From IMG/VR virus record IMGVR_UViG_2802429253_000007: a stretch of DNA of 4,004 nt; one strand, written 5' to 3'. Positions 1,471 through 4,004 of the stretch are shown here, piece after piece. A model generated the notes under the pieces. It ran no database searches. It was not told where the DNA came from and saw only the letters and a list, made by a program, of their open reading frames with translations. Each line of letters starts with the position of its first letter. Within the stretch, counting starts at the first letter, position 1. Source of the stretch: a virus. Taxonomy: Duplodnaviria; Heunggongvirae; Uroviricota; Caudoviricetes. Both the position numbers and the translations under genes were made by a program.

Positions 1471-2067
1471 TCACCCCCGCGTGGCGGACATGATGCCCAA
1501 AGGGGTATCGATGATTTCCAGACAGGCGTCGGTCAGCTTTTCCATGCGGTTAAACCAGCCGTTCAGGTATTTGCCCTGGGCGGGTTTTGATTTGATGATG
1601 TCGGCATAAAAGCGGGAACGACGGACAATACAGCGGGCCAGCAACCAGTCCGGGGTGGACAGGCTCACGGCCTTACGGGTACGCGGGCCGATGATGCCGT
1701 CAGCATCCACATCCGCGGCTTCCTGCAAAATTCTGATGGCTTTTTTAACGCCATGCTGAACCGCCGCATCGAACACAAACATCGCCACGCCATCAGGCCA
1801 CTGGTCACATCCGGCAGGCAGCCAGTAATCGCGCCAGTAAATCTGCGCAACCTGTTCGCGGGTTAAGTCCCTGATGCGGGTATCCGGTTTGCCGTCGCCG
1901 TTGACATCGGTTTTGCCGTCAATCACACCGTCGCGGCGGTCAGAAATGCCGTATTTGGTTTCGCCGCCACGGTCAGTGGGGTCATTGACATAAACGCCTT
2001 CGATATCAGGACGCAGAATAAAATTCAGCGCATGTTCAAAGGCCGGGGAGAATTTTTGATTTTCCAT
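1471..2067 (-). CDS. Glycoside hydrolase family 108 lysozyme (endolysin candidate) with C-terminal peptidoglycan-binding (PG_binding_3-like) domain, 198 aa
   Basis: N-terminal motif EGVYVNDPTDRGGETKYGI matches the conserved GH108 catalytic signature; C-terminal DADGIIGPRTRKAV resembles the PG_binding_3 motif. AGGTG lies 5 nt upstream of ATG 2067. There is no N-terminal hydrophobic/SAR segment, so it is presumably cytoplasmic and holin-dependent. Confidence 0.9.
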   Translation of the reverse strand: MENQKFSPAFEHALNFILRPDIEGVYVNDPTDRGGETKYGISDRRDGVIDGKTDVNGDGKPDTRIRDLTREQVAQIYWRDYWLPAGCDQWPDGVAMFVFDAAVQHGVKKAIRILQEAADVDADGIIGPRTRKAVSLSTPDWLLARCIVRRSRFYADIIKSKPAQGKYLNGWFNRMEKLTDACLEIIDTPLGIMSATRG

Positions 2068-2152: not shown

Positions 2153-2602
2153 TTAAGGGCGTCGTGGCGGACGACGAACGGGATGAGGCAGGTTCGGGGA
2201 GGGGTAAAACAAATCCGGCTGGTATTTATTGCGCTCCAGACGTCGCATCCGTTTGATGGCCTTGTAGACGGTTTTATACGTCACTCCGTAACGCTGAACC
2301 AGTTCAGGAATATTATGGCCGTTAAAATCACGCCAGATACGCATATCCCGGACAAGATTCTCCAGAATATTCCCCCTCGGAACATAAACCTGCATCCCGC
2401 CGATATGGCGACAAATCGCCACAACCAGCTCAAGGGAATGAGCAGGGTCTGCGCCAATCCGGGCCAGCTCTTTACGCAGCAGTGCGTTCAGTTCAGAAAG
2501 TAACGCCGGATAAGCGGTGTTTTCCTGGTAATCATGAAGATATTCCAGAACGCTGTCGTCCCGGAGGTCTTCGAATAAATCCTGCTCTTTCATCTGTTTC
2601 AT
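2153..2602 (-). CDS. mor: Mor (middle operon regulator) / Mor-C family transcription activator, 149 aa
   Basis: Translation closely resembles phage Mu Mor as I recall it (DLFEDLRDD..., PALLSELNALLRKELARIGADPAHSLELVVAICRHIGG.QVYVPRG, RDFNGHNIPELVQRYGVTYKTVYKAIKRMRR). ATG at 2602-2600 overlaps the gemA stop (ATGA), the same gemA-mor arrangement as in Mu. It carries a C-terminal Pro/Arg-rich extension. Confidence 0.88.
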   Translation of the reverse strand: MKQMKEQDLFEDLRDDSVLEYLHDYQENTAYPALLSELNALLRKELARIGADPAHSLELVVAICRHIGGMQVYVPRGNILENLVRDMRIWRDFNGHNIPELVQRYGVTYKTVYKAIKRMRRLERNKYQPDLFYPSPNLPHPVRRPPRRP

Positions 2603-3150
2603 ACAGCAATTCTCCCGCTGTTTCGTGCGCGGGCATATGCACTGGTCAGTGCATCATAGCCGCGCAGCTCCCGCCCGGTTTCGCTCACAGGTAAAGGCAC
2701 ACCATGTCGGGCAAAGGCTTCCCGGATGCAGCGCATGTGCCACTGTTTGAGCGTTTCGAGCACAACATGCAACGATTCCCCGTGACACCATGCCAGCGTG
2801 GAAACACCCTGACCGCCATTACGTCTGGCCGTCAGGCGTTCAACGTATTTGTCCAGCGCGGCGTCGCTGATATCGGAGACGAAACCATCAAGAAACATCT
2901 GCTGCCAGATTTTATAAATCTTCTCGCGCGGTGTGACATGCCCCTTAAAGCGACGGCGGGGATGTTTTTTCTGCTTCTTAAAACCGCGCTCTTTCATGGC
3001 ATCGAGCACCTGTTCCAGTTGTGCAACGGACAGCTCGCGGCAACTGGTCTTGCCTGTGCACTGCACCAGAAAGGCGCGGTAAGTGTCATCGTCGAGTTGT
3101 AGATCACGACGGGCGACATGAATTAATTTAATCAGGGATGTGCGATTCAT
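2599..3150 (-). CDS. gemA: GemA / Mu gp16-like protein (DUF1018 family), 183 aa
   Basis: Start placed at ATG 3150 (MNRTSLIK...) because GGAGG lies 7 nt upstream; the track ORF begins 18 codons earlier without an SD. Motif LIKLIHVARRDLQLDDDTYRAFLVQCTGKTSCRELS is characteristic of the Mu gp16/GemA family, and the gene is immediately upstream of and overlapping mor. Confidence 0.85.
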   Translation of the reverse strand: MNRTSLIKLIHVARRDLQLDDDTYRAFLVQCTGKTSCRELSVAQLEQVLDAMKERGFKKQKKHPRRRFKGHVTPREKIYKIWQQMFLDGFVSDISDAALDKYVERLTARRNGGQGVSTLAWCHGESLHVVLETLKQWHMRCIREAFARHGVPLPVSETGRELRGYDALTSAYARARNSGRIAV

Positions 3151-3164
3151 TATCGTACCTCCAG

Positions 3165-3191
3165 AAAAGGGGGCGGTGCGGCAACACCGCC
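3165..3191 (-). terminator. GC-rich hairpin plus short T-tract just upstream of the gemA RBS (weak intrinsic terminator or attenuator candidate, or mRNA structural element)
   Basis: Minus strand reads GGCGGTG-TTGCCG-CACCGCC (7-bp stem, 6-nt loop) followed by CCCTTTTCT, then the GGAGG SD of gemA. The 3-nt spacer and only four T residues make it suboptimal as a terminator. Confidence 0.3.
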
Positions 3192-3223
3192 AGAATTCAC
3201 TCACTAAACAGAGGAAACTTTTT

Positions 3224-3490
3224 ATGAAAAACAGTGAACAGCCTTATGATGTTGCAGGGTATGTCATTGCCTCAAGGTTGCTGATACTCCTTGTCAGAAA
3301 GGGGCTAATTACCGCAGAGGAAGGCAAAACGATCCTCGAAGCCGCAGCAAGCGGAGCGGCAGAGGCTCCGGCATTGAGAACAACGAATAATCCCATCCTG
3401 CAAATATCACAGCTAATCACTGATACCATCAGTTTGTTAGACCAAGATTCTGATGAATATCAAAAGCCTCAGCCATCTGAGCATCCGTAA
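3224..3490 (+). CDS. Candidate small protein (88 aa) encoded opposite to the surrounding operon; hypothetical
   Basis: ATG 3224 preceded by AGAGGAAA (SD with about 8-9 nt spacing, AT-rich spacer). Product is hydrophilic and helix-like (MKNSEQPYDVAGYVIASRLLILLVRKGLITAEEGKTILEAAASGAAEA...). Against it: the 3' end overlaps the minus-strand 104-aa gene by about 60 nt, it contains several rare codons, and a competing minus-strand ORF covers the same DNA. Confidence 0.35.
   Translation: MKNSEQPYDVAGYVIASRLLILLVRKGLITAEEGKTILEAAASGAAEAPALRTTNNPILQISQLITDTISLLDQDSDEYQKPQPSEHP
3244..3429 (-). CDS. Alternative candidate small ORF (61 aa), mutually exclusive with the plus-strand ORF at 3224-3490
   Basis: ATG at 3429-3427 overlaps the stop of the upstream 104-aa gene (TGATG), an arrangement typical of translational coupling. 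No SD; product is Ser/Ala/Val/Leu-rich with almost no charged residues, which could be a small membrane peptide or an antisense shadow. Confidence 0.2.
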   Translation of the reverse strand: MVSVISCDICRMGLFVVLNAGASAAPLAAASRIVLPSSAVISPFLTRSISNLEAMTYPATS

Positions 3491-3743
3491 GAATATCTTT
3501 ATTTGATAGTCCCAGCCTGCGACGAATGTATTCCTCGCGGGCTGCTTCATTTTGTAGCGCCACGGCAGTTTCCACCTGGTTCATTTCACGGTTAATAATG
3601 CTCCGGACTTCTCTGGCGGTGAGGTCATGCTCAATACCATATTTAACGATATCGTGCATACGTTCCAGCATCCTTAAATTAGCCATGACGCCATCAATAT
3701 CAACTGGTGTGAATTTCATTTCTTTTTTCTCTGGTTTATTCAT
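3429..3743 (-). CDS. Hypothetical protein, 104 aa (Mu-like early-region protein of unknown function)
   Basis: ATG at 3743 with GAGGT about 8 nt upstream. Hydrophilic, charged, helix-like translation (MNKPEKKEMKFTPVDIDGVMANLRMLERMHDIVKYG...). Start overlaps the stop of the upstream ORF by 8 nt. No family recognised. Confidence 0.7.
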   Translation of the reverse strand: MNKPEKKEMKFTPVDIDGVMANLRMLERMHDIVKYGIEHDLTAREVRSIINREMNQVETAVALQNEAAREEYIRRRLGLSNKDILTDAQMAEAFDIHQNLGLTN

Positions 3744-3918
3744 TTCGTAATACCTCTTCGCAATAAAAGATTTTACCGGGATAACGTTTTTGTATGCGCT
3801 CCATCACCTGCATACATGCCTGTTCTGTGGGCCAGATTTTTTCTGTTACCGGGATAGCATCACAGGCATCATTCCCGCAGGTGCCAACCAGCAGGACAAA
3901 GCCAATTGACTTAATCAC
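3736..3918 (-). CDS. Small Cys-containing protein (about 60 aa) with N-terminal hydrophobic segment (possible secreted or membrane-anchored peptide)
   Basis: Preferred start is GTG 3918 with GGAGA 7 nt upstream (product MIKSIGFVLLVGTCGNDACDAIPV...). The track ORF starts at TTG 3972 with no SD. The hydrophobic stretch after a basic N-terminus is signal-peptide-like, but the lipobox is non-canonical (VGTC), so lipoprotein status is not supported. Confidence 0.45.
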   Translation of the reverse strand: MIKSIGFVLLVGTCGNDACDAIPVTEKIWPTEQACMQVMERIQKRYPGKIFYCEEVLRNE

Positions 3919-4004
3919 CGCTCGTCTCCATCTGTTCCAGACGCTGTGCTTCGCGCATACACAGCTGCGCAATCATCATCTGGCGGGTAATGCCTGCACG
4001 AATA
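3911..4004 (-). CDS. 3' end of an upstream gene running off the right edge of the window (partial)
   Basis: Open minus-strand frame from the window edge to TAA at 3913-3911, giving ...IRAGITRQMMIAQLCMREAQRLEQMETSGD*. It contains the SD for the next gene and overlaps its GTG start by 8 nt. Only 31 codons are visible, so the frame assignment is tentative. Confidence 0.3.
   Translation of the reverse strand, partial: IRAGITRQMMIAQLCMREAQRLEQMETSGD

Follow-up and report, generated by a model that had tools for sequence, protein, structure and literature searches.

Does the interval between gemA and the 104-amino-acid (aa) gene upstream of it hold a gene in this Mu-like prophage, and on which strand? 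The question is raised by positions 3151-3490 of a 4,004-nucleotide (nt) prophage segment from the IMG/VR record IMGVR_UViG_2802429253_000007 (the window, meaning the whole stretch of DNA analyzed), the genes of which lie on the minus strand. A first-pass annotation, made from the sequence alone, had proposed here a small strand-switched gene, starting at ATG 3224, preceded by a Shine-Dalgarno (SD) sequence, encoding 88 aa and converging on the 104-aa gene with an overlap of about 60 nt, in preference to a minus-strand open reading frame (ORF) of 61 codons, TGATG-coupled to the gene upstream and devoid of an SD. The description proved accurate: the SD is GAGGA, the 3' overlap with the minus-strand 104-aa gene measures 62 nt, the ATG of the competing ORF shares the A of the upstream TGA, with no SD in the 20 nt preceding it, and gemA starts at 3150. 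The remaining annotated genes of the prophage are all on the minus strand, as had been stated, and in a near-identical copy (99.6%) found in E. coli FDAARGOS_943 the NCBI Prokaryotic Genome Annotation Pipeline (PGAP) lists exactly these genes, all but one minus-strand. The plus-strand ORF, 3224-3490, is very probably the version of phage Mu gene 15 carried by this prophage, and a genuine protein-coding gene.

The length of the ORF is by itself weak evidence. The probability of 88 open codons is about 0.009 from composition, but the window holds five plus-strand ORFs of at least 88 aa starting with ATG, the remaining four of which are antisense to genes on the minus strand. What sets the gp15-like ORF apart from these four is the SD, the lack of a credible opposing gene, and conservation.

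The product matches the family phrog_8747 in a PHROG profile search (E 7.1e-26, residues 1-86 aligned to positions 1-86 of the 88 in the profile). Homologs in Mu, SfMu and the Yersinia Mu-like phages were found by tblastn at 52-54% aa identity (Mu 54%, E 1e-18), and the Mu-type representative was matched by phmmer at 4.8e-18. In the RefSeq record of Mu (NC_000929.1) the homologous ORF is gene 15 (Mup15, NP_050619.1, complement 7896..8162), located between gp14 and GemA; it had been named F-134 in the left-end record M64097 of 1991, and SfMu_16, its SfMu counterpart, has the same place and strand. The gp14/gp15/gemA arrangement, with gp15 on the opposite strand and overlapping gp14 at the 3' end, is common to Mu, SfMu, Tongde, and E. 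coli and Salmonella prophages. The gene is already known, being annotated in RefSeq and in PHROGs; PGAP reports the plus-strand ORF as WP_072035588.1, and calls it in all the fetched E. coli prophages possessing the interval. A word-indexed protein search returned near-identical proteins only, an exhaustive HMMER search added a few true relatives, and no relative was detected in a scan of genome contigs. Two further HMMER matches, an ankyrin-like protein of 2209 aa and a repeat protein of 561 aa, were rejected as repeat-protein artefacts. A longer product starting at GTG 3140 (116 aa, like F-134 in Mu) was also discarded, the extension not being in frame in Mu. Searches of the literature retrieved nothing on the function or expression of Mu gp15.

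Mu is a reference phage, and two public annotations of its genome conflict at this very place. Opposed to the reverse-strand gp15 of RefSeq, the updated GenBank record AF083977.1 features a same-strand, 55-aa Mu_54 (AAF01092.2, 7960-8127) plus a semi-early promoter. The choice between the two ORFs set out in the first-pass annotation is a rediscovery of this known conflict.

The two frames share their third codon positions; periodicity and the ratio of nonsynonymous to synonymous substitution rates (dN/dS) are thus weak discriminators, and several independent lines of evidence were used. The use of dN/dS as sole arbiter of the strand was dropped, because with shared wobble positions it discriminates only moderately. 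Three lineages, approximately 60% identical at the nt level, were compared: the prophage in the window, Mu/SfMu, and a Salmonella prophage (P0004, 86 aa; loci L026-L031), in which the order GemA (minus), 86-aa ORF (plus), 104-aa gene (minus) is found, with a convergent overlap of 56 nt. The ATG, the SD, the open frame and the synteny are retained in all three. The plus frame contains no stops across the lineages, shows the highest identity and scores 2.3-2.6 BLOSUM units per site; the minus frame contains one to three stops, scores 1.5-1.9 per site, lacks a start codon in the Salmonella lineage, and terminates at different positions in Mu and in the window. SD-like purine blocks are located 5-9 nt before the ATG in Mu (GAGAGGA), in the Salmonella lineage (GAAGG), in phage D108 (AAGGA), and also in the cassettes of types C and D. 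Over codons 8-38, the proportions of nonsynonymous (pN) and synonymous (pS) changes between the window and Mu are 0.16/0.65 in the plus and 0.28/0.41 in the minus frame. The alignment of syntenic Mu-like prophages, suggested in the first-pass annotation, thus found the plus frame conserved, the minus frame broken in the Salmonella lineage, and the interval as a whole variable.

Coding potential was scored from codon usage, by training on the other genes of the prophage. Plus-strand ORFs scored +0.05 (window), +0.24 (Mu gp15), +0.17 (Salmonella) and +0.28 (D108 type), minus-strand ORFs -0.11 (window) and +0.01 (Mu_54), the antisense frames of known genes ranging from -0.02 to -0.38. The plus-strand product is conserved to the same degree as GemA and gp14 and better than Mor, the aa identity between the window and the Salmonella lineage being 45% for the gp15-like protein, 40% for GemA, 42% for gp14 and 23% for Mor. 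The 61-aa minus-strand peptide has no tblastn match at E<=1 in the phages whose DNA carries the interval, and has no PHROG or NCBIfam match and no significant Pfam match.

A further line of evidence comes from cassettes which cannot be aligned at the DNA level. The similarity of D108 DNA to the window ends exactly at 3192, and the D108, L047 and L064 cassettes are unalignable beyond. D108 (L004, NC_013594) has, in the 376-nt gap between gene 14 and gemA which appears empty in its annotation, an unannotated 119-aa ORF with an SD (1621-1980, plus strand in the locus; phrog_38610, E 8e-83); two further IMG/VR prophage types have ORFs of 80 and 79 aa at the same slot. With hhalign, the profile built on these three ORFs could be aligned with that of gp15 along the 45 N-terminal residues (94.5% probability, E 8e-8), and both groups match phrog_32893. 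On the strength of these profile matches, the D108 ORF is a distant homolog of Mu gp15. Homology at the profile level between cassettes unalignable as DNA is not something a shadow ORF could display. The minus-strand 61-codon ORF is accordingly judged to be a shadow ORF and not a gene, and Mu_54 in the curated Mu record is probably a wrong call.

The distribution of the gene was monitored in 45 enterobacterial loci from IMG/VR, anchored on gemA and classified by the content of the slot upstream of it. The gp15 type was found in 15 loci (one a deletion remnant), distant D108-like types in 5, an unrelated opposite-strand ORF in 11, and none in the remaining 14; all the slot ORFs are on the strand opposite to gemA. 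The alternative occupant is an ORF of 134-138 aa (phrog_585, E 3e-23), weakly similar to DUF2513 (L037, L042, L054, L055 and others), which starts 31 nt upstream of gemA, is divergent from it, and is followed by a GC-rich hairpin. The gp14-like gene, which is the 104-aa gene of the window, resides in 20 of the 20 loci carrying a gene of the gp15 superfamily, and in 0 of the 25 loci lacking it, all 11 DUF2513-like loci included; the unit of inheritance is therefore the convergent gp14/gp15 pair. The gp14-like and gp15-like genes make up one co-inherited, 3'-overlapping convergent module, inserted in a variable slot upstream of gemA. A second opposite-strand ORF, of 111 aa and belonging to no family, is found between mor and gemA in Salmonella L026, L027 and L031 (2052-2387, plus strand in the locus), adjoining a same-strand ORF of 63 aa.

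The slot content may be lost or interrupted. A clean deletion of 223 nt, corresponding to 3204-3426 in the window, removed the SD and codons 1-68 of the gp15 homolog in vB_YpM_3 (L005, 1597-1600) and vB_YpM_23, leaving the gp14-like gene and both hairpins described below; both are viable, plaque-forming Yersinia Mu-like phages (PMC10434027). The interval is absent in STEC1575, and a frameshifted gp15-like allele exists. In the Salmonella prophage L032 an insertion sequence encoding an IS256-family transposase (Transposase_mut; 3236-4444) is located in the 3' end of the gp15-like gene, of which it changes the C-terminus, and separates it from the gp14-like gene. Because of the Yersinia deletion, the frameshifted allele and the insertion, the gene appears dispensable for lytic growth. 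The family is confined to Mu-like elements of E. coli, Shigella, Salmonella and Yersinia phages; 39 of 5,426 complete E. coli genomes contain at least 80% of a 461-nt query spanning the interval.

Just past the stop codon of the gp15-like ORF, a plus-strand hairpin (3513-3544; -19.9 kcal/mol, z -4.3) is followed by a T-rich tail. A hairpin and a T-run are found at the equivalent place in Mu, in the Salmonella lineage, in D108 and in the C and D types, with T-runs better than that of the window, and the RNAalifold consensus contains 13 pairs, compensatory double changes being present in three. This hairpin is antisense to codons of the gp14-like gene and persists in spite of a change in the residues they encode, which are AAREEYIRRRLG in the window and KKAHNNIVCREL in D108. 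On the minus strand the stem is not followed by a T-run, and the terminator would therefore serve plus-strand transcription; from sequence and predicted folding, the gp15-like gene would end at an intrinsic terminator of its own. A real gp15 gene with a terminator of its own is very likely. A second hairpin (3172-3191), found by the terminator scan, varies in its loop, but not in its stem, among the window, Mu and Salmonella lineages. In minus-strand reading, CCCTTTTCT and the SD of gemA come after it, and in plus-strand reading it would fall within the gp15 leader; it looks like a weak terminator, or attenuator, ahead of gemA-mor. It is found in 19 of the 19 full-length cassette loci of types A, B and D and in the A-type deletion remnant L073, as a 6-bp variant in type C, and is missing in all 11 DUF2513-like loci and in 12 of the 14 loci with an empty slot.

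The gp15-like protein is acidic, with a net charge of about -5. Three helices (10-25, 31-47 and 61-76) were predicted by AlphaFold2 from a shallow alignment (mean predicted local distance difference test score, pLDDT, 75.5), and as modeled the product would be an acidic, helical, cytoplasmic protein. The first helix is hydrophobic, with charged residues at shifting positions, hence it seems an amphipathic packing helix more than a membrane span. The conserved N-terminal core (residues ~6-38) is followed by a variable middle (39-68), and the last 20 codons overlap the gp14-like gene. The pattern Q-x-YDVAGY-x-IAS-x-L-x-x-LLV-x-K-x-IT-x-x-EG is conserved in the N-terminal ~40 residues, which appear to be under purifying selection. 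In contrast, 3290-3400 is a divergence hot spot, the identity to the near relative L008 dropping to 83% vs. 97-100% in the flanks, and that to Mu to 50-57% vs. 75-90%; within this stretch pN exceeds pS (0.167 vs. 0.124; 11 nonsynonymous, 3 synonymous changes). The fast middle third would fit diversifying and relaxed selection alike. The gp14-like protein was modeled by AlphaFold2 as a helical hairpin plus a third helix (pLDDT 73).

Homology searches met with little success. Comparison of the AlphaFold2 model with PDB and BFVD gave generic helical matches and the F-134 protein of Mu itself only, sequence searches of PDB with gp15 and gp14 gave no match, and Pfam and NCBIfam scans of both translations, plus and minus, gave nothing above threshold. 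Membership in the SHOCT-like family PF22746, suggested by the resemblance of the motif LLVxKGxITxEE, was rejected (17.5 bits vs. a cut-off of 27, over 18 residues). No homology to known toxin or antitoxin families was found for either the gp14-like or the gp15-like protein in Pfam, NCBIfam and PDB sequences, and PADLOC models matched neither the window protein nor any of the cassette types at E<=1. The immunity, anti-defence and toxin-like functions conjectured in the first-pass annotation received no support from these searches.

Could the minus-strand ORF, the equivalent of Mu_54, be the real gene, TGATG-coupled to the gp14-like gene, and the plus-strand ORF its antisense shadow? The logic of a unidirectional operon would be preserved, the frame is open over 61 codons in the window lineage and over 55 in Mu, the curators of the Mu record annotated it, and its dN/dS is below 1 too, as the coinciding wobble positions allow. 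Yet the Salmonella lineage has stops and no start codon, the stop moves between Mu and the window, SD and PHROG family are both lacking, the codon-usage score is typical of antisense frames, D108-type cassettes have no counterpart, and from the very same DNA tblastn retrieves the plus-strand protein at 1e-18 and the minus-strand peptide not at all at E<=1; this explanation is very improbable. Nor is it easier to believe that both strands code, as a fully overlapping antisense gene pair present in some members of the family. Two of the three lineages do have both frames open, and the minus-strand ATG abuts the stop of the gp14-like gene, but the arguments raised against the minus ORF apply equally here, and conservation of its frame is no greater than shared wobble positions impose.

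A different explanation is that the interval is mainly regulatory, hosting a semi-early (gem) promoter and the attenuator-like hairpin, or an antisense RNA directed against gp14 or the early transcript, the ORF being secondary or untranslated. The Mu record places its semi-early promoter at the equivalent of about 3167-3235, which includes the conserved 3172-3191 hairpin; a transcript of the plus strand would necessarily cover about 125 nt or more of the gp14-like mRNA (3429-3553); and constitutive expression of the gem operon in lysogens is reported in the literature. A non-coding role leaves unexplained the occurrence of an ATG and an SD in every cassette type, as well as the aa-level homology between DNA-unalignable cassettes and the N-terminal purifying selection, and no Rfam family was found in the interval. 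As a substitute for the gene this explanation is unlikely; regulatory elements can coexist with it, and are a complement more than an alternative.

Some observations weigh against a genuine, functional gp15-like gene having its own transcription signals. The N-domain ratios between Mu and Salmonella are 0.43 and 0.44 and do not discriminate between the frames, and substitution patterns in general discriminate modestly, as a consequence of the coinciding wobble positions; the codon-usage score of the window ORF is itself weakly positive; and the curators of the updated Mu record picked the other strand. In close comparisons the dN/dS of the whole gene is high (0.60), with pN equal to or above pS in the middle third, figures which fit weak constraint as well as diversifying selection. 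The T-tract of the window terminator, CTTCATTTT, is interrupted, and a consensus scan of 2900-3800 found no sigma-70-like plus-strand promoter; the sites noticed in 3090-3223 by manual inspection match 3-4 of 6 hexamer residues, are weak, and were not taken as promoter sites. Family and fold searches, moreover, gave no functional lead.

With the plus-strand ORF taken as the gene, a tentative picture of its expression may be drawn, the lysogen-expressed accessory mechanism in it being given low confidence. Transcription of the gene would run counter to the early operon and stop at the 3513-3553 terminator, inside codons of the convergent gp14-like gene, and translation would start from its own SD. 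As the gene points toward the strong early promoter (Pe) and is terminated separately, it is probably expressed mainly while Pe is repressed, in the lysogen; activation of the early operon would then turn it off, through convergent transcription and antisense pairing. The protein would be an accessory factor, dispensable for lytic growth and acting by protein-protein binding, the conserved N-terminal domain contacting a partner, which may be gp14 or else a factor of host or phage origin engaged in an arms race. More doubtful is the idea that gp14 and gp15 are functionally coupled, in a switch phased with lysis and lysogeny or in a toxin/neutraliser-like module. In such a pair the lysogen would produce gp15, and activation of Pe would silence it through collision and antisense pairing; the hypervariable middle (pN>=pS) would result from an arms race with host defence or with competing Mu-like phages, and might provide specificity, e.g. 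in exclusion or anti-defence; the 5' hairpin, strictly co-occurring, would be an attenuator gating the read-through of the early operon into gemA-mor.

The comparative evidence favors gp15, and the PGAP annotation of Mu-like prophages is therefore right, the curated update probably not. Other searches proposed in the first-pass annotation point the same way, the plus translation matching phrog_8747 and the minus translation no PHROG, with codon-usage scores of opposite sign. What is added to previous knowledge is the evidence on gp15 and Mu_54, the relation with D108-type ORFs, the terminator embedded in gp14-like codons, and the gp14/gp15 module. The results define a small, fast-evolving family, restricted to Enterobacteriaceae, which together with gp14 occupies a replaceable slot upstream of gemA. 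Judging from sequence, it is a reasonable candidate for an accessory role, expressed in the lysogen, in the Mu-like prophages of E. coli, Shigella and Salmonella. The practical value at present is a cleaner annotation and a testable target.

Table 1. Features of the 4,004-nt window discussed in the text
Feature	Position	Strand	Remarks
gp15-like gene, 88 aa	ATG 3224..TAA 3490	plus	ORF, phrog_8747, homology to Mu gp15, PGAP call
Shine-Dalgarno GAGGA	3211..3215	plus	about 8-9 nt upstream of ATG 3224
Competing 61-codon ORF	3429..3244	minus	counterpart of Mu_54 in updated AF083977; judged a shadow ORF
Intrinsic-terminator-like element	3513..3553	plus	hairpin 3513-3544 (CAGCCTGCG...CGCGGGCTG), then CTTCATTTT
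Hairpin GGCGGTG-N6-CACCGCC	3172..3191		between gemA start and gp15-like SD
gp14-like gene, 104 aa	3743..3429	minus	phrog_6075, E 2e-42
gemA	3150..2599	minus	Pfam GemA, E 7e-33; 'gp16 family protein' in PGAP; downstream neighbor fixing the slot position
mor	2602..2153	minus	downstream of gemA; terminator after mor
GH108 lysozyme	2067..1471	minus	followed by lysis and late genes
Small early gene	3972..3736	minus	78-aa ORF with TTG start, phrog_16556, E 1e-28

The interval had been described as richer in AT than its flanks. This holds true for the gemA side only (GC content 0.471 vs. 0.543), the upstream flank being as AT-rich as the interval (0.461 in 3491-4004, 0.425 in the 104-aa gene); the idea of a compositional island was rejected, and the interval is located at a composition boundary. 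Two observations concern other parts of the window. The 78-aa ORF (3736-3972, minus; L002 3637-3820) is labelled as frameshifted by PGAP in the FDAARGOS_943 prophage. A sub-threshold Rfam match to sroD (2122-2172, minus; 25 bits vs. a gathering score of 50) coincides with the stem-loop past mor, and is most likely just the terminator ending the gemA-mor unit.

The closest known relative of the element is Mu gp15 itself, which is located between gp14 and gemA in opposite orientation, has 88 aa and the same 3' overlap with gp14, and is 54% identical over its full length; the window protein diverged mainly at residues 39-68, and the prophage differs from Mu in its GH108 lysozyme and in its Mor (54% identity). 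The D108-type ORFs (phrog_38610/phrog_32893) share slot, strand, SD, convergent gp14-like overlap, downstream plus-strand terminator and the N-terminal core of ~45 residues, but have no DNA similarity, other lengths, and other C-terminal halves. Morons are independently transcribed extra genes, found inside the operons of temperate phages (lysogenic-conversion genes), and the first-pass annotation had read the interval as a variable insert of this sort. Presence, absence and replacement in the slot, the predicted terminator of its own, dispensability for plaque formation, and an orientation allowing expression independent of the lytic operon all fit this description; it falls short in that no promoter was found by scan, composition is not distinct from that of the neighboring early genes, and the gp15-like gene is always linked to the gp14-like gene, not a free-standing insert. 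Toxin-antitoxin pairs come to mind as well, the gp14-like and gp15-like genes being small, adjacent and co-inherited, but their convergent arrangement, without co-transcription, would be unusual in a type II system. In the Mu-like Pseudomonas phage Fc02, lysogens express small opposite-strand genes that overlap the early operon and act in superinfection exclusion (PMC9936078). These genes are located elsewhere, beside the repressor and ner, and no sequence relationship is expected; they provide an analogy only for the way in which a gp15-like protein may act.

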